From assembly GCA_041666225.1 (NCBI GenBank), contig JBAYHJ010000003.1, positions 17,116 through 81,115 of the forward strand: a stretch of DNA of 64,000 nt, given 5' to 3'. Both the position numbers and the translations under genes were made by a program. Within the stretch, counting starts at the first letter, position 1; each line of letters starts with the position of its first letter. Shown here piece after piece: positions 26,616 through 35,586 of the stretch. Origin of the DNA: Minisyncoccota bacterium (lineage in GTDB: Bacteria > Patescibacteriota > Minisyncoccia > Phycocordibacterales > UBA9973). Under the pieces are notes generated by a model, which had not been told where the DNA came from, made no database searches, and worked only from the letters and a program-made list of their open reading frames with translations.

Positions 26616-28355
26616 CTACATCCTATCTGGTACCTCTATACCCAATAGCCAGAGACCGTTCTTCATAGTTTGTACAAATGCTTTTATAAGATTCAAATGA
26701 TAAGCCATATATTTGTTTTCATCCACAAGTATCTGAGTATTGCCATAGAAAGTATTAAAGCTACTTGCAAGTTCAGTGAGATAAGTTGCAATATGATGAG
26801 GCTCAAGCAAACTGTATGAACGCTCAACTACTTCAGGAAATTGATAAAGTAATTTTTCTAAATCTATAATATTTTCTGGAATCTCCCCATTGTCCAAGCC
26901 TTGCCTGGACATCTGAGATTTTGCAAGAATAGAATTTGCTCGAACAGCAGTGTATTGTAGATAAGGACCAGAGTCACCATCAAAAGAAATTGATTTCTCG
27001 AAATCATAAACAATATCACTACCAAGTGATGAGCGAAGAATAGAATATTTAAGTGCTGCTACTCCAACAATTTGAGATATTCTCTTTTTCTCTTCATTTG
27101 AAAGTTCTCGGTCTTTTACTTTCTCAAAAACAATATCCATTGAGTCTCGCAAAAGTGACTCACCCGTTATAACATTACCTTTTCGAGAAGACATTTTACC
27201 TGTGGACAGTCTCATCATCCCATGGGTAATATGCTTCATTCTACTTTCTAGATCTGGATGCATTAGGGAAATCGCTTTCTGAACAACTTTCATATATTCA
27301 GCTTGCTCTATTGCTGTCGTGACAATAGAAATATCAGGATTTTCTTTTTCAAACTTGGTAGTTGTTAGACCTATTTCTTTCGTTTCATAAGTAGGCAAGC
27401 CCTGAGAATTTATAAAAACACGAGTGTGAAGTTTCTTATCATAGTTCTCACCATGGAAAATAATTGCTCTATCTGATTCTTCAAATATTTTCCCAACATT
27501 CTCTCTTACAATTTTCTCTCCAATTGGAGCCATGACACTTTCGAAGAAGTAATAATCAAATTTTGTTCCTAAAAGTTTATATATTTCTTCAAATGCTTCA
27601 AGTGTAGCTTTTCTTCCCCAATCATAATATTCTTTTATTTTTTCATCACATTCACCACTTTTATTTATATAATTATAAATTTGTTTATTAATACTTTCTA
27701 TCTCTTTTTTTGCCTCATCATTTATCTCATATTCATTATTACCTTGTGCATAACTATCACCAATAGCTAATGAAAGAGCCAAATAAGATAATCCATTATC
27801 AGTAGTAGGATATCCTAATTTAATCAAATGATATATAGCCTTTGCAACATGAGGACCTACATCCCCTTGATAATTTGCTCGAATAGTTTTTGCCCCAGAG
27901 AATTCTACAATTCTAGAAACTGACTCACCTATGGCGTTAGCCATTAAGTGACCGATATGGAAAGGCTTGAAAGGATTCGGATCCGTGTACTCCACCATAA
28001 CTTTTTTCCCTTCAAGTATTTTATTCTTTCCCCACTTGTCTCCTTTATCTAAAATTTCACTTACACTCTCTGTGAAAAATTCTCGTGACAAATAAAAATT
28101 AATAAATCCAGCTCCTGCAGTCTCTATCTTTTCAATATCACCGAAGCCTTGCTTCGGTAAACCTTTTAATTCTAAGGCCATTTTTTCTGCTAATTCACGA
28201 GGGTTTGTTTTTTGTTGTTTTGCACAAACCATTGCCACATTTGTAGAATAATCTCCATTTTTAAAATCTTCAGGATGTTCAACGGAAAAAGAAACATCTT
28301 CTATTCCAAGATTTTTTAAAGCTTCATTTATTAATTTTTCTATTTGTTCTTTCAT
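26616..28355 (-). CDS. argS: Arginyl-tRNA synthetase
   Basis: N-terminal ArgRS add-on domain, HIGHLMANAIGESVSRI motif and a DALR-type anticodon-binding C-terminus. Confidence 0.9.
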   Translation of the reverse strand: MKEQIEKLINEALKNLGIEDVSFSVEHPEDFKNGDYSTNVAMVCAKQQKTNPRELAEKMALELKGLPKQGFGDIEKIETAGAGFINFYLSREFFTESVSEILDKGDKWGKNKILEGKKVMVEYTDPNPFKPFHIGHLMANAIGESVSRIVEFSGAKTIRANYQGDVGPHVAKAIYHLIKLGYPTTDNGLSYLALSLAIGDSYAQGNNEYEINDEAKKEIESINKQIYNYINKSGECDEKIKEYYDWGRKATLEAFEEIYKLLGTKFDYYFFESVMAPIGEKIVRENVGKIFEESDRAIIFHGENYDKKLHTRVFINSQGLPTYETKEIGLTTTKFEKENPDISIVTTAIEQAEYMKVVQKAISLMHPDLESRMKHITHGMMRLSTGKMSSRKGNVITGESLLRDSMDIVFEKVKDRELSNEEKKRISQIVGVAALKYSILRSSLGSDIVYDFEKSISFDGDSGPYLQYTAVRANSILAKSQMSRQGLDNGEIPENIIDLEKLLYQFPEVVERSYSLLEPHHIATYLTELASSFNTFYGNTQILVDENKYMAYHLNLIKAFVQTMKNGLWLLGIEVPDRM

Positions 28356-28777
28356 TATTTTCTTCCAGTCGAGCCAAAACCTCCCATTCCACGAGATGAA
28401 TCACTAAGAGTATCAGTTTCCTCAATTTCTGCAATCACAACTGGAACTATCACTAATTGAGAAACTTTATCACCCTCTTCTACAGTATATGGTTCACTTC
28501 CCAAATTTACAAGGTGGGTATTGTATTCCCCTCTGTACCCTGCATCAAATACTCCACCCATATGAATAAGTCCTGCTTTTGAAATACTTGATTTGTCCAT
28601 TATAATTCCTGCATTCCCTTCTGGAAATTCCATAGCAAAACCATGGAAAAATCTATAATGTTCCATTGGTTTTATAGTTACAGTTTCCATAGCATACATA
28701 TCCATACCAACATCTCCAGGGTGAGCGTAGTTTGGTAATTTTGCATTCTCCTTTAATTTTTTAATCTTTATTTTCAT
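28355..28777 (-). CDS. dut: dUTP diphosphatase
   Basis: dUTPase motifs: GDVGMDM, IHMGGVFDAGYRGE, RGMGGFGSTG. Confidence 0.85.
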   Translation of the reverse strand: MKIKIKKLKENAKLPNYAHPGDVGMDMYAMETVTIKPMEHYRFFHGFAMEFPEGNAGIIMDKSSISKAGLIHMGGVFDAGYRGEYNTHLVNLGSEPYTVEEGDKVSQLVIVPVVIAEIEETDTLSDSSRGMGGFGSTGRK

Positions 28778-29252
28778 TGTATTTAAATAATTTTATAAGT
28801 TCTTTAAAATTTTTAAAAAATATTTCTGGTTTTTCTTCAAGTAATTCTTCTAATTCATTTTTTGAAAACCATTTTATATCTTCAACTTCTTCATCTTGTT
28901 TTACAAAGTTATAATCATGATCAACAACAGCAGTGTATAATTTAGCAAAACAACTATAGACACGGGCCTTATTAACAGCATTAAAATTTATATTAACTAA
29001 TCCTATTTCTTCCTCAGCTTCTTTTATGATATTTGATTCATAAGTCTCTCCTTCTTCTACCGTTCCTCCAACCGCCGGACCCCACAATCCTGGGTCATGT
29101 TTTTTACTAAAAGCTCTTTGGGCTAAAAGAATATTACCATCCTTGTCTGTTACCCAGAGCCCTGTTGCACGAACTATATCTTGAGAATCCCTATTTCCCC
29201 TATCTTTGTATCCTATTATTTCATCTTTGTCATTTACAATTGGAATTCTCAT
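28761..29252 (-). CDS. NUDIX hydrolase
   Basis: Nudix box GGTVEEGETYESNIIKEAEEEIGL. Confidence 0.8.
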   Translation of the reverse strand: MRIPIVNDKDEIIGYKDRGNRDSQDIVRATGLWVTDKDGNILLAQRAFSKKHDPGLWGPAVGGTVEEGETYESNIIKEAEEEIGLVNINFNAVNKARVYSCFAKLYTAVVDHDYNFVKQDEEVEDIKWFSKNELEELLEEKPEIFFKNFKELIKLFKYNENKD

Positions 29253-29950
29253 TTTAATATTTTTTTAACCTCTTTATAAACCATATCATGCACATCTTCG
29301 CGTGATAAAATTTTTCCTTTTTGAGAACATTCAATTTTAATAAAATTAGGATTTTCTTTTACCAAATTAAGAGCACTTTTTCTTGAATTAACTAAAAATT
29401 CCATATCATTTTCATAAACATCTTTTTTCTTTTTCAAATACTCTCTTTTCATCTTACTACTATCCCTTTCTTTTAAAAGATCTAGGACAATTTTAATTGG
29501 TAAACTCAAATACAAAGTAATGTCTGGTTTTGGAATACCAAAAACTTCATATTCCATTTGGTTTAACCATTTCATAAAATCTGCTCTTTTCTTGGCACTT
29601 TTAATTTTTCCACCTTGGTGAATTTGATTTGCCGATACATAACGATTTGCAATAACCACGTATCCCTTTGAAAGCCATTCTTTCATCTCAACACTAGACT
29701 CCCATCTATCTGCAGCAAAAAGTACTGAAGTAATTTTTGGGTGAACACCTAGAAAATTATAATATTGCTCAGAAAGACAGTGCCCAATAAATTTTCCAAA
29801 GAAATTTTTATAATACTCAGGAAAATCAACAACTTTTACTTTGTGACCATCTTTTTTCAAATGCTCAGTTAAGTAAGCCACTTGAGTCGCCTTCCCACTT
29901 CCATCTGTCCCATCTATAACAATCAACTTCCCTTTATATTTTTGTTTCAT
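29249..29950 (-). CDS. tmk: Thymidylate (dTMP) kinase
   Basis: P-loop IVIDGTDGSGKATQ and the DRW/LID region. 233 aa, with a C-terminal extension. Confidence 0.85.
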   Translation of the reverse strand: MKQKYKGKLIVIDGTDGSGKATQVAYLTEHLKKDGHKVKVVDFPEYYKNFFGKFIGHCLSEQYYNFLGVHPKITSVLFAADRWESSVEMKEWLSKGYVVIANRYVSANQIHQGGKIKSAKKRADFMKWLNQMEYEVFGIPKPDITLYLSLPIKIVLDLLKERDSSKMKREYLKKKKDVYENDMEFLVNSRKSALNLVKENPNFIKIECSQKGKILSREDVHDMVYKEVKKILK

Positions 29951-29984
29951 ATTATCTTAAATTATATCATCAAATTATAAAACG

Positions 29985-30032
29985 ATGAAATCTATACAAA
30001 CTCTGCCATGGCAGAGTTTGTATAGATTTCAT
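29985..30032. promoter_or_regulatory. 48-bp perfect palindrome in the divergent tmk / wHTH-gene promoter region (core TCTGCCATGGCAGA)
   Basis: 24+24 bp perfect inverted repeat, ATGAAATCTATACAAACTCTGCCA|TGGCAGAGTTTGTATAGATTTCAT. Confidence 0.6.
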
Positions 30033-30054
30033 TTTTAATATATAATATATTCAT

Positions 30055-30531
30055 ATGTCTATAGTAAGTGAAATATTAGAAGAATTATGGAATAAAGAAC
30101 TTAATTATAAGGGAGTTAGAGTAAATATATTCGGTATTCCTCGTTTAAAAAGATATAAAAAGGAAAGTATTTATATAACCATTAGTAGATTAAAGAAAAA
30201 GGGCATTGTAGAAAAAGAATTATCTGGTATAGTACTTTCCAAATACGGGAAGGAGTATGTTAAGAAAAAGATTGATTCATTAAAACAATTTGATAGGCCT
30301 GAGAATTTATCTAAAGAAAAAAATCTTCTATTGATGTTTGATATACCAACACATAGAAAACCAGAGCGAGAATGGCTCAGGTGGCACCTAAAAAAATTCG
30401 GTTATATTATGATTCAAAAAAGTGCTTGGGTTGGCCCATCTCCTCTCCCCAAAGAATTCAAGGATTATATAAAAGAAATTAAATTGGAAAAATGTATTAA
30501 AACTTTTAAGCTCGAAAAATCTTACAAATAA
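30055..30531 (+). CDS. Putative winged-helix DNA-binding protein with a C-terminal Cas2-like/PaaX-like segment (hypothetical regulator)
   Basis: N-terminus has a wHTH-like ISRLKKKGIV segment. C-terminus has LLLMFDIPTHRKPEREWLRWHLKKFGYIMIQKSAWVG, resembling the Cas2 beta-alpha-beta pattern. The family assignment is uncertain. Confidence 0.35.
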   Translation: MSIVSEILEELWNKELNYKGVRVNIFGIPRLKRYKKESIYITISRLKKKGIVEKELSGIVLSKYGKEYVKKKIDSLKQFDRPENLSKEKNLLLMFDIPTHRKPEREWLRWHLKKFGYIMIQKSAWVGPSPLPKEFKDYIKEIKLEKCIKTFKLEKSYK

Positions 30532-30552
30532 CTAAAATGCTACCATTTCTGC

Positions 30553-30594
30553 CATGGCAGAAATGGTAGCATTTTAGTTTTATTATTAACTTTA
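30553..30594. terminator. 42-bp perfect palindrome between convergent genes (bidirectional terminator sharing the TCTGCCATGGCAGA core)
   Basis: AAAATGCTACCATTTCTGCCA|TGGCAGAAATGGTAGCATTTT. Confidence 0.6.
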
Positions 30595-30595
30595 T

Positions 30596-31024
30596 TTATT
30601 TTTTGTCAGAATAATTTTTGAAAATGTTTTTTAATATATCTAAAACTTCTTCTTTGTTTGAATAATGAGAAACTTTACAATTTGAATTACCGGCAATCAT
30701 AGCAGAAACTTTCTTGTCTTCTTTCTTATTATATAAACAAAAAATATTTTTATTTAATTTTTCTGCATAAGCAATTTCATAACCAACTCCAAGAGAAGGA
30801 ACTGAGACATCTGCAATAATAATATCAGATTCCATTATATAGGAAATATCTCGATTATATATTTCCTTATCTGTCATATTAGGACTTCCATAACTAGTAA
30901 GTGATTTATCGGCTACAAATTCACTAATCACTTCTCCGTATTTAACTAACTCCTTCACAATAAAATCATACCATTCAGCATGTTCTCTTCCTCCTCTTAT
31001 TGATCCAGAAAAATATATTTTCAT
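30596..31024 (-). CDS. 2'-deoxynucleoside 5'-phosphate N-hydrolase (DNPH1/Rcl family)
   Basis: YFSGSIRGGREH, YGEVISEFVAD, SDIIIADVSVPSLGVGYEIA and KVSAMIAG align closely with the DNPH1 motifs YFCGSIRGGRED / PSLGVGYELG / VLSAMIRG. Confidence 0.8.
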   Translation of the reverse strand: MKIYFSGSIRGGREHAEWYDFIVKELVKYGEVISEFVADKSLTSYGSPNMTDKEIYNRDISYIMESDIIIADVSVPSLGVGYEIAYAEKLNKNIFCLYNKKEDKKVSAMIAGNSNCKVSHYSNKEEVLDILKNIFKNYSDKK

Positions 31025-31590
31025 AAATTATTTTTTAAATTATAAGCTAATATATCATAACCATGCTCGGTATGATCCTCTCTTGCTACACCCCATAACT
31101 CCAATATATCACTTAATTCATTTTGAATTTTTTCTGTTTCATCTGCAGTGCCAAATTTTTCTAGTTCTATGTATGAACCAAGTCCAACAACATTATCAAG
31201 GCAAATTTCAATTTCACCCAATTTGTAAGTTTCCCTATCTTTTTCTGTTATACAAAATTCATAAAATCCCAAAGTTAAAATAATTGATTCTAAATTAGTA
31301 ATATCTTCTTCTTTTATTTCAATTTCGTACTCTTTGCAATCTGATTCACATTTCACTGGTTGTTTAAGAGTAAAAATAACTTTTTTATTTTTTTCTGATT
31401 CCTGTTTTCTAATTCTCAAATAGTTAATACCAAGTAAATTTATCCCCTCTTCTATTTTTCTAATATGATTCGGCCAAAAAACAATATCTCTTTGGTGTTT
31501 TTCACCTAAAAATTCTGCCCTAGAATTTTTAATATATTCTAAAACTTTTTCTCTATCTCTCAATTTTGCTTTTACTTCTATTTCATTCAT
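31021..31590 (-). CDS. CYTH-domain protein (triphosphate tunnel metalloenzyme / class IV adenylyl cyclase-like)
   Basis: N-terminal MNEIEVKAKL (the EIEVK signature) and about 189 aa. Confidence 0.65.
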   Translation of the reverse strand: MNEIEVKAKLRDREKVLEYIKNSRAEFLGEKHQRDIVFWPNHIRKIEEGINLLGINYLRIRKQESEKNKKVIFTLKQPVKCESDCKEYEIEIKEEDITNLESIILTLGFYEFCITEKDRETYKLGEIEICLDNVVGLGSYIELEKFGTADETEKIQNELSDILELWGVAREDHTEHGYDILAYNLKNNL

Positions 31591-31593
31591 ATT

Positions 31594-32790
31594 TTATTTA
31601 CCTCTTAAAATTCTATCCATCTTAGTGGCAATTTTTATCATATCATTCTCTTTTCTTCCTCTTGTTGTTTCAGCACAAGTACCTAGTCGAACTCCTGATG
31701 GATCCATAACACTTCGTGTGTCCCCTGGAATAGTATTCATATTCACAATAATTCCTGATTTTTCTAATTTGATACTTGCCTCTTTACCACTGATACCCTT
31801 CCCGTCCATCCACGTGTCCATCAATATTAAATGTGAATCCGTTCCACCTGAGATAATATGCCAGCCGAGTTTTTGTAATTCTTTAGCTAGGACTTTAGCA
31901 TTTTTAATAACTTGTTTTGCATATTTTTTAAACTCAGGCTTTGCTGCCTCAGCAAGTGCTACAGCGACGCCTGCAATATTGTTTTCGTGTGGTCCACCAA
32001 AAAGTCCTGGAGTCACCATCTTGTCTAATTTTTTATCAAAACCTCTTTCGTCTTTTTTAACAAATAGAATTGCCTGGCGTGGACCACGAAGAGACTTATG
32101 AGTTGTTGTCATCACAGAGTCAGCATATGGAAATGGTGATGGATAAGCACCACCTGCAATAAGTCCCGCAAAGTGTGAAATATCTACATGTAGAATCGCT
32201 CCCCGCCTACCATCGGGGTAAACCACTGCATCTGCAATTTCTCTGAACTTTTTAAAATCAACAACTCTAGGATAAGCAGTAAAACCACAAACAATAATAT
32301 CGGGCTTTTCAGCTATTGCTAATTTTTTCAAAGCATCATAATCTATAACTTCGGTTTTAGAATCAAGCTCAAATTGTAATGGCTTCCAAAGTTTCCCCGT
32401 CATTGAAAGTGGATGACCATGAGTTAAATGCCCTCCTGAAGTTAATTTCATTCCCATTATTTTTCCACCAATAGGAACTAGCGCAGAGTATAAAGCAAAG
32501 TTGGCAGGACTTCCTGATAGAAGTTGAACATTTACATGCCAATCTTCTTTTTTTAATTTAAAAAGTTTGAGAGCACGTTCCATGCAAAGAACTTCAACTT
32601 TGTCTATAATTTCATTACCACCATAATATCTACGTCCTGGGTAACCTTCAGCGTATTTATTTGTCAGTTTTGAACCAACTGCCCTAAGAACATCGTCAGA
32701 TACATAGTTCTCTGAAGCAATTAAGTTTATAACACTTTTTTGTCTTTTTTCTTCTGCCTTTATAAGTTTTTCTATTTGTTTATCTTTCAT
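31594..32790 (-). CDS. glyA: Serine hydroxymethyltransferase
   Basis: LIASENYVS and the PLP-lysine region TTTHKSLRGPR. Confidence 0.9.
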   Translation of the reverse strand: MKDKQIEKLIKAEEKRQKSVINLIASENYVSDDVLRAVGSKLTNKYAEGYPGRRYYGGNEIIDKVEVLCMERALKLFKLKKEDWHVNVQLLSGSPANFALYSALVPIGGKIMGMKLTSGGHLTHGHPLSMTGKLWKPLQFELDSKTEVIDYDALKKLAIAEKPDIIVCGFTAYPRVVDFKKFREIADAVVYPDGRRGAILHVDISHFAGLIAGGAYPSPFPYADSVMTTTHKSLRGPRQAILFVKKDERGFDKKLDKMVTPGLFGGPHENNIAGVAVALAEAAKPEFKKYAKQVIKNAKVLAKELQKLGWHIISGGTDSHLILMDTWMDGKGISGKEASIKLEKSGIIVNMNTIPGDTRSVMDPSGVRLGTCAETTRGRKENDMIKIATKMDRILRGK

Positions 32791-32891
32791 ATTATTGGTG
32801 GTTTAGATTGGTAATAAATTGATTTTATCACAAATTAAGGAAACTAAAAAATCCGGCTTGAACCGGATTTTTAAAGAGATTAATTTGACTA

Positions 32892-33293
32892 TTATAGTAG
32901 TTTTTTTATTTTTTCGACAAGTAAGTCAATATATTCTTCTATTTGATTTAAATCGTTAACTTGAACAATTTCAGTTTTCATACCATTACAAATTAATGGA
33001 ACTAAATGATTTTCATTTGTTAAAATAATTATTTGTTTTTTTATTCCATATGCGTATCCCAATTCAGCCCCCCAATTAGGAGATTCATTTAGGGCAATGG
33101 CCAATATTAATGATGATTCTTCAATCCCTCTTATATCTTGGCTAAATAATATTTCATCTTTTTCTTCTTGATTGGTATCGCGATGTGGAAGATAGCAAGT
33201 TATTCCACTTTTTTCAAGAGCTTCACCTATTTTAGGATTAAATTCAACATTCCACTGATTAGTGAAAGTTGAAGTTAGATATATATTTTTCAT
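32892..33293 (-). CDS. Nucleoside 2-deoxyribosyltransferase-like protein
   Basis: 133 aa with NDT-family pattern (SSLILAIALNESPNWGAELGYAYGIKKQIIIL). Confidence 0.55.
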   Translation of the reverse strand: MKNIYLTSTFTNQWNVEFNPKIGEALEKSGITCYLPHRDTNQEEKDEILFSQDIRGIEESSLILAIALNESPNWGAELGYAYGIKKQIIILTNENHLVPLICNGMKTEIVQVNDLNQIEEYIDLLVEKIKKLL

Positions 33294-33311
33294 ATAATTT
33301 AAAATTGCTTT

Positions 33312-33851
33312 TTATTTATCAAACTGATGACCTAAAATATTTTTAGGGTTTCTTGGATTAAACAATATTTCACTATCATCAACAAGATAAACTTTTTTTA
33401 TTCCGATTCCCAACATCTTATCCCAACAGGGCTTACAACACCACCAGTGTCCCCATAGATATAATTCTGGATTATTAATATCTTTAATATTTCTTTTTTG
33501 AATATCTAAAACTGCTCTAGATTCTGCATGACTTTCATTTGTTGCACACCCAGGACAAGCCCAATATTTTTCACCAGTAGGAATATGAAGTAAATGTCTT
33601 ATACAATATTTTTTATGTAATTTTATCATCCAAGAAGATGATAAAGGATTTTTATTAGACTTTTCAGATATTATTTTACCATCACAAACAATAACTGCAC
33701 CAGTTGGTTGCTGTTGGTCATTTGATTTTTTTGCCTCTTCTTTTGCTTTACTCATTAAGTTATTACTTAGAGGTACAGATTCAATAAAACAACCCTCTGG
33801 TAAATAGGGATATTTTACACTTTCTTTTACATTATTTTGTGATGTTTCCAT
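33312..33851 (-). CDS. Deoxycytidylate (dCMP) deaminase-family zinc deaminase
   Basis: HAE zinc-ligand motif and PGCATNESHAESRAV...CCKPC (the H(A/C)E...PCxxC signature). Confidence 0.7.
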   Translation of the reverse strand: METSQNNVKESVKYPYLPEGCFIESVPLSNNLMSKAKEEAKKSNDQQQPTGAVIVCDGKIISEKSNKNPLSSSWMIKLHKKYCIRHLLHIPTGEKYWACPGCATNESHAESRAVLDIQKRNIKDINNPELYLWGHWWCCKPCWDKMLGIGIKKVYLVDDSEILFNPRNPKNILGHQFDK

Positions 33852-33880
33852 AATTTAAATTATACTATATAATTATTAGC

Positions 33881-34729
33881 ATGACTACTTTTGATACAAT
33901 CTATAAAAATTTAATAAAAAAAATAATAGAAGAAGGTATTGAAGAATTAAATGAACGCACAGGTCATAAGATAAAAATAATACCTGGACTTACTTTCCAA
34001 ATTGATATAGAGAAAGAAGGGTTTCCAATATTAACTCTTCGTAAGAATCCGATTAAATCACCCATTGCTGAGCAGGTATGGTTTATAACTGGAGATAAAG
34101 ATACAGAATTTTTAAGAAAATATACAAAAATGTGGGATGAATTTATTGAAGAAGATGGGACTATAACTTCTGCTTATGGATATAGATGGAGACATCATTT
34201 TGGCAGAGACCAATTAGACCAACTAATTAAACACCTAACAGAAGAGCCTCATTCAAGACAAGGAGTAGTTATAACATGGGACCCTTCTGATGATGGTCTA
34301 TATGGTAAAGGATTAAAAGCAACATACAAAAAGAATGCGCCATGCCCTTTCGCTTTTACGGTAAACATAGTGGGTGGGAGACTTCATCTTCATAATATAA
34401 TTCGATCAAACGATATGATGCTTGGTTGTACATTTGATACATTTGGATTTAGCCTACTTATGTGTGCTCTCGCTCAAAAATTGGGAGTAAGGCCAGGAAT
34501 TTATACTCATACTATTTCCAACGCACATATATATGACAATCATTACGAAGGAGCACTTGAATTGATTAAAAGAGAAAATAATCATCCAAATATTTTTCCA
34601 GTATTTCCAGAAAATATTTACGACAGAGCCTTTAATAAAGATGAAACACTGGTTGGTGAAATTTATGAATCTTTTGCCCCATATTACCATCCAGATGAAC
34701 CAATAAAAGGTTTAGACATAATAAAATAA
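33881..34729 (+). CDS. Thymidylate synthase (ThyA) family enzyme with atypical specificity residues (PCP instead of PCH; Asp at the E. coli Asn177 position)
   Basis: Gap-free alignment to E. coli ThyA across the catalytic Cys region: NAPCPFAFTVNIVGGRLHLHNIIRSNDMMLGCTFDTFGFSLL vs [41 protein letters not shown]. The N177 equivalent is D, and H147 is P. Confidence 0.75.
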   Translation: MTTFDTIYKNLIKKIIEEGIEELNERTGHKIKIIPGLTFQIDIEKEGFPILTLRKNPIKSPIAEQVWFITGDKDTEFLRKYTKMWDEFIEEDGTITSAYGYRWRHHFGRDQLDQLIKHLTEEPHSRQGVVITWDPSDDGLYGKGLKATYKKNAPCPFAFTVNIVGGRLHLHNIIRSNDMMLGCTFDTFGFSLLMCALAQKLGVRPGIYTHTISNAHIYDNHYEGALELIKRENNHPNIFPVFPENIYDRAFNKDETLVGEIYESFAPYYHPDEPIKGLDIIK

Positions 34730-34730
34730 T

Positions 34731-35231
34731 ATGATTTTATCTATAATTTCAGCCATAGGAAAAAACAATGAAATCGGTAAAAGTAATGCTTTGTTATGGG
34801 ATTTGCCCGCTGATATGAAGCATTTTAGAGAAACAACAAGTGGCCATGCTGTCATTATGGGTCAGAAAACTTTTGAATCCATAGGACGTCCCCTTCCAAA
34901 CCGTCGTAATATAATACTTACTAAAGATGAAAATTTTAAACAAGAAGGGATAGAAATTGTTTACTCAATTCCAGAACTTATGGAATTACTAGACAAAAAA
35001 ACAAGCAAAGACGAAGAAGGATTTATAATCGGAGGAGGTCAGATATATCGATTGTTTATGGATGTTGCGGACCGACTATATATCACTCACGTCGAGGAAT
35101 CATTCCCTGATGCAGATACATTCTTCCCAGAGATTGATACAACTAAATGGGAAAAAACAAAAAATGAATTTTATCCCGCTAATGAATTAAATAAATATAA
35201 TCTTGAGTTTGCAACATATACTAAAAAATAA
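34731..35231 (+). CDS. folA: Dihydrofolate reductase
   Basis: MILSIISAIGKNNEIGKSNALLWDLPADMKHF...VIMGQKTFESIGRPLPNRRNIILT is the canonical DHFR pattern. Confidence 0.85.
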   Translation: MILSIISAIGKNNEIGKSNALLWDLPADMKHFRETTSGHAVIMGQKTFESIGRPLPNRRNIILTKDENFKQEGIEIVYSIPELMELLDKKTSKDEEGFIIGGGQIYRLFMDVADRLYITHVEESFPDADTFFPEIDTTKWEKTKNEFYPANELNKYNLEFATYTKK

Positions 35232-35232
35232 A

Positions 35233-35262
35233 ACCCTCATATGAGGGTTTTATTTTTTATGG
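35233..35262. terminator. Terminator after folA
   Basis: AACCCTCATATGAGGGTT hairpin followed by TTTATTTTTT. Confidence 0.7.
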
Positions 35263-35586
35263 ATCTACTTCTGTTCTTTCTCTAATAAAAATATTTTTAC
35301 CATCTGGTGACTTTGTTTTTATATATTTACGATGTTTATTAATTTCTATTTTACGGACTAACTCATTCTCTAAGTCATAACCAAGAATCTCACACATACC
35401 TAAAAGGAAAATAGCGACATCTGCAAATTCTTCAGCAACACCATTTTGATTTTTATTAAATTTAGAAAAAGCTTCAGATAACTCTTCATGCGCCCGACAA
35501 AATTCAATAGCAACATCAGTAGTATTGAAGCCTTTTCCCAACTTATTACGCATCACTTCTTTTTGTAATTCTTTCAAATCTACCAT
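35257..35586 (-). CDS. MazG-like all-alpha NTP pyrophosphohydrolase (DCTPP1-like)
   Basis: 109 aa with EELSEA...EEFADVAIFLLGMCEILGYDLE (MazG EExxE/D motifs). Confidence 0.65.
   Translation of the reverse strand: MVDLKELQKEVMRNKLGKGFNTTDVAIEFCRAHEELSEAFSKFNKNQNGVAEEFADVAIFLLGMCEILGYDLENELVRKIEINKHRKYIKTKSPDGKNIFIRERTEVDP

Follow-up and report, generated by a model that had tools for sequence, protein, structure and literature searches.

What does a homolog of thymidylate synthase (TS) do in a bacterial chromosome when the canonical Asn at position 177 of ThyA (Escherichia coli numbering) is Asp and the gene lies among other genes of deoxypyrimidine metabolism? The question is raised by a 64-kb window, the whole stretch of DNA analyzed here, from contig JBAYHJ010000003.1 of an ultra-small Minisyncoccota bacterium, a member of the Candidate Phyla Radiation (CPR). 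The window is AT-rich chromosomal DNA (G+C ∼31%) and contains a 7-kb island (28355-35586) in which the original prediction named twelve genes, all recovered by the list of open reading frames (ORFs) and by searches with Pfam and NCBIfam profiles. The island had been treated as one functional unit that could make or edit a C5-modified pyrimidine nucleotide or serve as a salvage hub. We assign a probability of about 55% to a narrower reading, drawn from sequence, in which the bacterium would make thymidine nucleotides from 5-methylcytosine (5mC) nucleotides rather than from deoxyuridine monophosphate (dUMP). The route would run via a chromosomal core of four genes that encode a deaminase, the ThyA homolog, dihydrofolate reductase (DHFR; FolA), and a MazG-like protein.

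The Active Site of the ThyA Homolog and Its Phage Counterparts

Alignments to solved TS structures place Asp at the position of E. coli Asn177 (RSNDMMLGCTFD aligns to E. coli RSCDVFLGLPFN), as the original prediction had it. The catalytic set of TS is kept (Cys146, Glu58, Arg21/126/166, Ser167, Asp169, His207, and Tyr209 in E. coli), and aligned residues of the homolog include R26 (R21), E64 (E58), C155 (C146), R175/S176 (R166/S167), D178 (D169), and H216/Y218 (H207/Y209). The two marks of canonical ThyA, Asn177 and His147, are absent, with D186 and P156 in their places, and N152 stands at L143. Among the 120 closest homologs, Asp177 and Asp169 are each present in 120, Pro147 is present in 118, and all catalytic residues are intact. 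In a scan of 1.84 billion representative proteins, 118 of the 136 full-length representatives among the best matches have Asp177. This Asp177-type family usually has Pro for His147, Phe for Trp83, Gln or His for Arg127, and His or Asn for Asp205, and the catalytic residues are all retained.

A metavirome association study (PMC8670742) singled out positions 147 and 177 for conservation that differs between modified-cytosine contigs and unmodified ones, and N177D and N229D mutants are cited as switching TS to deoxycytidine monophosphate (dCMP) (PMC8670742, PMC13326640). The Xp12 phage enzyme is reported to make 5-methyl-dCMP, as did five of seven metagenomic Asp-type homologs tested in the same study (preprint 10.1101/2024.12.05.627091). 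At positions 143, 147, 169, and 177, the ThyA homolog has the signature N143/P147/D169/D177 (NPDD), which is identical in phages Xp12, Mallos, and PA_LZ02; canonical ThyA has L/H/D/N and T4 gp42 has D/T/D/D. In the gp42 sequence used in these comparisons, C148, D179, and E60 were checked to fall at their published positions.

Residues that mark other chemistries are missing. At position 143, a bulky hydrophobic residue goes with methyl products and Asp or Glu with hydroxymethyl products (PMC13326640, 2026); the homolog has Asn152, which is not acidic. The D169N mark of 5-hydroxy-dCMP synthases (PMC13326640) is absent, with Asp178 retained. T4 dCMP hydroxymethylase is without the TS C-terminal segment and releases tetrahydrofolate (THF), so DHFR is unneeded (PMC5175136), whereas the C-terminus of the homolog, PDEPIKGLDIIK, is like the TS tail PHPGIKAPVAI. 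In MilA and BcmA, preference for ribose is associated with Ala for Ser167 and Lys for Arg126' (PMC5175136); the homolog instead has Ser176 and Arg126, the deoxyribose type. Readings of the enzyme as a hydroxymethylase, a 5-hydroxy synthase, or a CMP-specific enzyme were rejected on the basis of these diagnostic residues.

Against Xp12-type enzymes the homolog reaches 184-194 bits, compared with 109 for E. coli ThyA and 40 for T4 gp42. Its best phage matches are Xp12/PaMx74-type phages and relatives (36-40% identity), and an insertion that precedes the catalytic Cys (DPxxDGxGxxGxxKNxPCP) is common to the CPR and phage ThyA homologs. Databases name the protein "thymidylate synthase." It passes the TIGR03284 cut-off for TS (117.1 vs. 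108.35) and fails four other NCBIfam ThyA equivalog cut-offs, scoring well below them (e.g., 147.6 vs. 327 for NF002497). The best matches of its AlphaFold model (pLDDT 90.5) in the Protein Data Bank (PDB) are full-length methyl-transferring TSs (TM ∼0.8), and the top 50 structural matches include neither T4 dCMP hydroxymethylase nor MilA. The protein is 100% identical to an NCBI protein labeled Candidatus Paceibacterota and has close relatives labeled Nomurabacteria, Paceibacteria, or Patescibacteria. From these sequence features, the ThyA homolog is predicted to be a dCMP C5-methyltransferase (5-methyl-dCMP synthase).

The genes around phage counterparts have a similar composition. In Mallos, PA_LZ02 (a PaMx74-type phage), and Xp12, the gene for the ThyA homolog lies between a pyrophosphohydrolase gene and a deaminase-family gene, which is followed by a DHFR gene; this set of four activities, pyrophosphatase, TS homolog, deaminase, and DHFR, is also that of the CPR core. 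In metaviromes, a deaminase gene is located ≤3 kb from a TS homolog in 70% of modified contigs versus 6% of unmodified contigs, and many TS-adjacent deaminases prefer 5mC, a polyphyletic trait for which no sequence marker is known (preprint 10.1101/2024.12.05.627091). The authors of that preprint propose that these deaminases make deoxythymidine (dT) nucleotides from a 5-methyl-deoxycytidine (5-methyl-dC) pool, with the consequence that no dUMP-dependent synthase is needed (10.1101/2024.12.05.627091). The Asp177-type family also includes natural fusions of ThyA to a dCMP deaminase, to a MazG-like PRA-PH domain, and to an HNH endonuclease (P0137, P0198, P0143), and a deaminase-ThyA fusion is encoded on a phage-like contig (locus L090) beside genes for ribonucleotide reductase and for the dCTP deaminase/dUTPase family. 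The earlier suggestion that an Asp177-type ThyA homolog is a sign of a C5-modified pyrimidine nucleotide is supported, and made more specific, by the signature of Xp12-type dCMP C5-methylases and by the phage-like partner activities.

The Four-Gene Core and the Surrounding Island

Conservation was examined in GTDB, with each species represented by one genome. A relative of the ThyA homolog is encoded in 272 genomes, and the best 80 loci, all from Patescibacteria, were compared with all 14 island proteins using tblastn. The deaminase gene is adjacent and divergent in 74 of the 80 loci, folA is directly downstream of the gene for the ThyA homolog in 72, and a MazG-like gene is within 2.5 kb in 56. 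Linkage of glyA is less conserved (26 loci within 2.5 kb of the ThyA homolog and 31 anywhere in the locus). The genes dut, argS, and tmk are found anywhere in the locus in 18, 17, and 15 of the 80, homologs of DNPH1 (51-68% identity) are near the module in four, the regulator-like gene in four, and the Nudix gene in three. Neither the CYTH gene nor the NDT-like gene of the window has a match in any of the 80 loci. Because the core recurs in 72-74 of the 80 related species genomes, its clustering is not due to chance. Closer examination of two relatives placed the four-gene core between rpsL-rpsG-fusA and rplK-nusG-secE. On the basis of the synteny counts and this ribosomal-protein neighborhood, the unit under selection is the four-gene core (deaminase, Asp-type ThyA, FolA, and MazG-like protein), which behaves as a housekeeping locus, and the 7-kb island is a lineage-specific accretion around it. 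The idea of the whole island as a functional unit does not survive the tblastn comparison, in which CYTH and NDT-like genes are unmatched and DNPH1, dut, tmk, and argS are nearby in only ∼15-20 of the 80 loci.

Two other interpretations of the locus were rejected. A prophage or mobile island is ruled out by the ribosomal-protein flanks in relatives and by the aminoacyl-tRNA synthetase genes, recO, and sigma factor gene that also lie in the window. A role in anti-phage defense, for example as a dCTP deaminase system, is not indicated by PADLOC, which gave no defense match for eight island proteins, including the four of the core, except for weak Cas2-like and PDC-S07 matches that belong to the regulator-like and Nudix proteins; the score to NF041025 is only 21 bits. 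Two IMG/VR viral contigs (L091 and L092) carry ThyA homologs of the CPR clade (58-63% identity) and dut; L092 has a CPR-type deaminase gene alongside and L091 a MazG-like gene, and neither has a match to folA. These contigs may be from phages of Patescibacteria that carry the module, a hint of exchange between phage and host.

The start of folA is 2 nt past the ThyA stop codon (a 1-nt gap), and FolA would serve to recycle the dihydrofolate released by reductive methylation. This coupling favors a methyl product because an enzyme that forms no dihydrofolate has no need of DHFR. The deaminase gene is divergent from the gene for the ThyA homolog, at a spacing of 29 bp in the window. Its product has the catalytic motifs H108-A-E110 and C139-K-P-C142 (CxxC), scores 18.8 bits against the ComEB profile (cut-off 219), and has an AlphaFold model (pLDDT 82.7) with best PDB matches to the dCMP deaminases of T4, human, cyanophage S-TIM5, and S. 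mutans, at a modest TM of ∼0.45. In this search, the family was found only among Patescibacteria-type homologs, and it evolves much faster than the adjacent ThyA (50% vs. 91% identity in locus L008). Members have a second invariant His/Cys cluster (HKKYCIR...YWxCPGCA, which includes C99-P-G-C102) that is possibly a structural zinc site. The MazG-like protein has the motifs E34-E-x-x-E38 and E52-E-x-x-D56 and matches the pyrophosphatase of PDB entry 4qgp (7e-4); no DCTPP1 chain is among the matches listed in the search of solved-structure sequences. The label "DCTPP1-like" was therefore too specific, since sequence supports membership in the all-alpha MazG superfamily only. The protein's predicted activity is that of a pyrophosphatase on dCTP (or 5-methyl-dCTP), by which the monophosphate would be supplied or returned.

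Table 1. Features of the 7-kb island and of the adjacent argS side, with coordinates in the 64-kb window.
Feature	Coordinates	Strand	Evidence
IleRS-like class I aminoacyl-tRNA synthetase, 1161 aa	20277-23762	-	tRNA-synt_1 and Anticodon_1; His_Phos_1 1.7e-24 (residues 507-674)
ORF, 517 aa	24094-25647	-	no Pfam match
P-loop kinase-like protein, 172 aa	25798-26316	-	Zeta_toxin/AAA_33/KTI12 matches
dut, dUTP diphosphatase	28355-28777	-	Pfam dUTPase 1.7e-27; TIGR00576 120 bits, above cut-off
NUDIX hydrolase	28761-29252	-	NUDIX 8e-19
tmk, dTMP kinase	29249-29950	-	Thymidylate_kin 2e-20; TIGR00041 81.8 bits vs. cut-off 83.25
Perfect palindrome, 24-nt arms	29985-30032		zero loop
Regulator-like protein, 158 aa, PaaX_M/Cas2-like domain	30055-30531	+	PaaX_M 9e-13
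Perfect palindrome, 25-nt arms	30530-30579		zero loop
DNPH1/Rcl homolog	30596-31024	-	7e-25 to rat Rcl, 1e-23 to human DNPH1, full length
CYTH-domain protein (class IV adenylate cyclase/triphosphatase family)	31021-31590	-	CYTH 4.8e-17; TIGR00318 83.9 bits vs. cut-off 57.95
glyA, serine hydroxymethyltransferase	31594-32790	-	SHMT 1e-145
Terminator-like hairpin after NDT-fold gene	32847-32872	-	pattern match
NDT-fold protein (nucleoside 2-deoxyribosyltransferase superfamily)	32892-33293	-	Nuc_deoxyrib_tr 9e-10; Nuc_deoxyri_tr2 2e-8
dCMP-deaminase-family protein	33312-33851	-	dCMP_cyt_deam_1 2.6e-11
ThyA homolog, Asp177 type	33881-34729	+	Pfam Thymidylat_synt 7.5e-55
folA, dihydrofolate reductase	34731-35231	+	DHFR_1 1.6e-58
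Hairpin, 17-bp stem, between convergent folA and MazG-like gene	35222-35259		terminator-like match
MazG-like protein, 109 aa	35257-35586	-	Pfam MazG-like 24.9 bits (cut-off 27); PHROG 3301 "pyrophosphatase" 5e-12

Gene spacing and hairpins in the sequence, the latter being pattern matches and not proof, suggest five transcription units (table 1): tmk-nudix-dut-argS, in which reading frames overlap and tmk is first; glyA-CYTH-DNPH1; deaminase-NDT; thyA-folA; and the MazG-like gene alone, convergent on folA. Of the operons proposed earlier, tmk-nudix-dut-argS and thyA-folA hold, but the single operon of deaminase, NDT, glyA, CYTH, and DNPH1 is split by the hairpin that follows the NDT-fold gene. 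The hairpin between folA and the MazG-like gene is likely a bidirectional terminator for both. In an AT-rich genome, terminator-like matches are suggestive only. A promoter scan of the window was at chance level (46 matches vs. 44 expected), and we therefore make no promoter claims.

Most of the remaining island genes may be accessory to the core. A full-length alignment to rat Rcl and human DNPH1, with the GSIRGG, Asp, GVGYE, and SAMI motifs aligned, leaves the identification of the DNPH1/Rcl homolog intact; these motifs have catalytic and phosphate-binding roles. Its start is overlapped by the CYTH stop by 4 nt (31021-31024), which suggests that the CYTH triphosphatase-family protein and the deoxynucleoside monophosphate (dNMP) N-hydrolase are translationally coupled. 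The product of tmk has the usual LFxxxRWE and xRY motifs, read from its sequence and compared with human TMPK. The NDT-fold gene is on the same strand as the deaminase gene and 18 nt downstream of it, and its PDB matches are weak. It is a very divergent member of the fold. In at least 17 of the 80 loci, a different NDT-fold ORF of ∼140-165 aa directly follows the deaminase gene, the same position as that of the NDT-like gene of the window; these ORFs, such as those in L043 (9054-9539), L020 (9008-9445), and L048 (9054-9485), are 30-36% identical to the DNPH1 homolog of the window. We infer that dut, Nudix, DNPH1, and NDT-fold genes are accessory genes for pool cleaning or salvage with variable linkage to the core. 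A salvage hub, the alternative offered in the original prediction, is plausible for peripheral genes (DNPH1, NDT, and Nudix) but leaves the conserved core unexplained.

The regulator-like gene is flanked, as had been described, by two perfect palindromes. Their common core, CTGCCATGGCAG, is found at no other site in the window, and the number expected by chance is 0. The gene probably came in as a cassette or has (bidirectional) terminators at both ends, and it is outside the conserved module. On the argS side of the island are a P-loop kinase-like protein, an adjacent ORF without a Pfam match, and an IleRS-like synthetase that carries an inserted histidine phosphatase domain.

Proposed Route to Thymidylate and Competing Explanations

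The gene content, active-site signature, synteny, and family relationships described above are observed; the substrates, step order, and physiological role that follow are proposed. The MazG-like pyrophosphatase would convert dCTP to dCMP and may also return 5-methyl-dCTP to the monophosphate. The ThyA homolog would bind dCMP, not dUMP, through Asp186 (E. coli Asn177), and would transfer and reduce the one-carbon unit of 5,10-methylene-THF to yield 5-methyl-dCMP and dihydrofolate. FolA would reduce the dihydrofolate and serine hydroxymethyltransferase (SHMT; glyA) would reload THF, regenerating 5,10-methylene-THF. The divergently encoded deaminase would then convert a 5-methyl-dC nucleotide to a dT nucleotide, most simply 5-methyl-dCMP to dTMP, which Tmk would phosphorylate. 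The predicted order is to methylate and then deaminate, rather than to deaminate and then methylate, and dUMP would not be an intermediate. Deamination may instead take place on the triphosphate, since mSCD-B5, the phage deaminase characterized in detail, acts on 5mdCTP and not on 5mdCMP (10.1101/2024.12.05.627091). Two weak arguments, the deaminase-ThyA fusions and the ordinary-looking tmk, lead us to prefer the monophosphate.

Several observations weigh against this route, and the substrate of mSCD-B5 is one of them. Another is the presence of dut, which makes dUMP without an obvious consumer in the scheme; a DNPH1-type hydrolase is a candidate for that role. In a neighbor-joining tree of 144 sequences, which is star-like and does not place the CPR clade within the Asp-type family, the CPR ThyA homologs are on a separate branch and are not nested among Xp12-type enzymes. 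Orthology of the other components with those of the phages was rejected: the CPR deaminase has no BLASTP match to the phage protein and only a remote profile match by hhalign (92% probability), and the CPR pyrophosphatase has none by BLASTP or hhalign. For this reason, the parallel is one of function sets only; the likeness to the phage module is in functional composition and in homology of the ThyA component, not in shared descent of the whole module. A search with ThyA of E. coli and ThyX of M. tuberculosis as queries found no second ThyA and no ThyX in the window or in ∼1.2 Mb of flanks from the 80 loci; as these are a small part of each genome, the result is weak evidence that another TS is absent.

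The same genes could operate an ordinary thymidylate cycle in which dUMP, formed from dCMP by the deaminase, is methylated by the ThyA homolog despite Asp177, in a normal thyA-folA-glyA-tmk-dut neighborhood. Such a cycle would agree with the TIGR03284 score and the database name, with the presence of dut and tmk in the island, and with the ordinary dCMP deaminases that are the best structural matches of the deaminase; the catalytic residues, TS-like C-terminus, and folA coupling all fit a methyl-transferring TS. It is nonetheless unlikely because the Asp/Pro signature is fixed across the family, at positions highlighted for cytosine-modifying homologs (PMC8670742). In the cited papers, characterized natural Asp-type homologs (T4 gp42, Xp12, MilA, BcmA, and 5-hydroxy-dCMP synthases) all use a cytosine nucleotide. 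The four NCBIfam ThyA equivalog cut-offs are missed by far, and the tight adjacency of deaminase and TS seen here is rare (6%) in unmodified contigs (10.1101/2024.12.05.627091). Alternatively, modification may extend from nucleotide to DNA: 5-methyl-dCTP would be incorporated, 5mC would replace part or all of the cytosine as in Xp12/PaMx74, and the same pool would supply the deaminase with its substrate for dT. The signature and the set of four activities match phages that fully replace C by 5mC, a dCTP pyrophosphatase is the activity needed to deplete dCTP, the triphosphate substrate of the characterized phage deaminase implies a 5mdCTP pool, and the viral contigs L091 and L092 combine CPR-clade ThyA homologs with a MazG-like protein or a deaminase. 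We regard this as quite unlikely, given that literature searches gave no report of wholesale 5mC replacement in a cellular organism and that the conserved core includes no dedicated kinase for modified dNMPs. In the in vivo assay of the preprint, T4 dNMP kinase was coexpressed with TS homologs to move noncanonical pyrimidines into the dNTP pool (10.1101/2024.12.05.627091). The tmk of the island has the usual motifs. The broader claim that many Paceibacteria (Nomurabacteria and relatives) replicate with 5-methyl-dCTP and have chromosomes with 5mC for much or all of their cytosine, a condition so far documented only for phages such as Xp12, is very unlikely.

The original prediction leaned toward hydroxymethylation or other C5 chemistry, in which 5-hydroxymethyl-dCMP (or a product of CMP) would be processed by the deaminase and by DNPH1/NDT-fold glycosidases, on the model of MilA/MilB, BcmA/BcmB, or DNPH1 systems that act on 5-hydroxymethyl-dUMP. 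Asp177 is common to those enzymes, the island has a clear DNPH1 homolog and an NDT-fold protein, and at least 17 of the 80 loci have an NDT-fold gene after that of the deaminase. Position 143 is Asn as in Xp12, however, and not Asp or Glu; D169 is retained, and Ser176 and Arg126 are of the deoxyribose type. The C-terminus is TS-like, the T4 enzyme and MilA fall outside the top 50 structural matches, and the translationally coupled downstream DHFR, conserved in 72 of the 80 loci, would be unnecessary for a THF-releasing enzyme (PMC5175136). We consider such chemistry highly improbable.

The chemistry and the phage module of the preferred route, methylation of dCMP followed by deamination, are already described; what would be new is a chromosomal, lineage-wide, housekeeping version in cells. 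Literature searches found no report of a 5-methyl-dCMP pathway to thymidylate in cells, which does not prove that none has been published, and in papers on CPR bacteria the genes are regarded as an ordinary thyA and folA. If the route operates, a large bacterial lineage makes thymidylate by methylation and then deamination of cytosine nucleotides and bypasses dUMP, which so far has been discussed only for phages. Hundreds of genes annotated as "thymidylate synthase" or "dCMP deaminase" would then need new functional names, and metabolic reconstructions of CPR bacteria would change, as would ideas on their dependence on hosts for nucleotides and folate. For methylation sequencing, where 5mC-selective deaminases are of interest, the lineage would offer a cellular source of such enzymes. 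The locus raises the testable question of whether any cellular genome carries 5mC introduced at the nucleotide level, and if the proposed functions are correct, the two viral contigs with ThyA homologs of the same clade point to phages and hosts exchanging modules for nucleotide modification.

Comparison with Known Systems

DNPH1/Rcl, which is named 5-hydroxymethyl-dUMP N-hydrolase in recent PDB entries, has a full-length counterpart with conserved motifs in the window (30596-31024); the CPR gene differs in being bacterial, translationally coupled to CYTH, and linked to the ThyA module in few genomes. With MilA/MilB and BcmA/BcmB, which pair a CMP hydroxymethylase with an NDT-fold N-glycosidase in antibiotic pathways, the locus shares an Asp-type ThyA homolog near NDT-fold proteins. 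Unlike those systems, it is without ribose-preference residues and antibiotic-pathway genes, DHFR is coupled, and the NDT-fold neighbor is found in a minority of relatives. T4 gp42, which acts with the gp56 dCTPase, Cd, and Frd, has Asp at the 177 equivalent, a substrate, dCMP, that we propose here as well, and a dCTP pyrophosphatase that feeds the ThyA homolog. But gp42 has Asp143 and Thr147, is without the TS C-terminal segment, forms a hydroxymethyl product, and has no need of DHFR; its sequence is 24% identical to the CPR homolog over 152 residues (40 bits).

The canonical cycle (ThyA EC 2.1.1.45, FolA, GlyA, ComEB/DCTD, Dut, and Tmk) has the same fold, catalytic Cys, folate chemistry, thyA-folA coupling, TS-like C-terminus, and gene set. 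It differs in that CPR ThyA has Asp for Asn177, Pro for His147, Phe for Trp83, Gln or His for Arg127, Asn for Asp205, and Asn for Leu143, the deaminase is far from ComEB, and the proposed order of steps is reversed. The Xp12/PaMx74 module has the same four clustered activities, NPDD signature, and insertion before the Cys, and the CPR homolog scores about twice as high against its enzymes as against E. coli ThyA. In contrast to the phage module, gene order in the CPR locus has the deaminase divergent and the pyrophosphatase convergent, and linkage to glyA and tmk is frequent. The CPR deaminase is no more than a distant relative of the phage enzyme, no similarity could be detected between the 109-aa pyrophosphatase and its phage counterpart of 250-265 aa, and the ThyA branch is separate. 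The CPR genes are chromosomal, with genes for ribosomal proteins and aminoacyl-tRNA synthetases around them, and their conservation extends over many species of Patescibacteria. Taken together, these comparisons suggest that the core is a chromosomal housekeeping version of an Xp12/PaMx74-type module, one that would make 5-methyl-dC nucleotides and derive dT from them.

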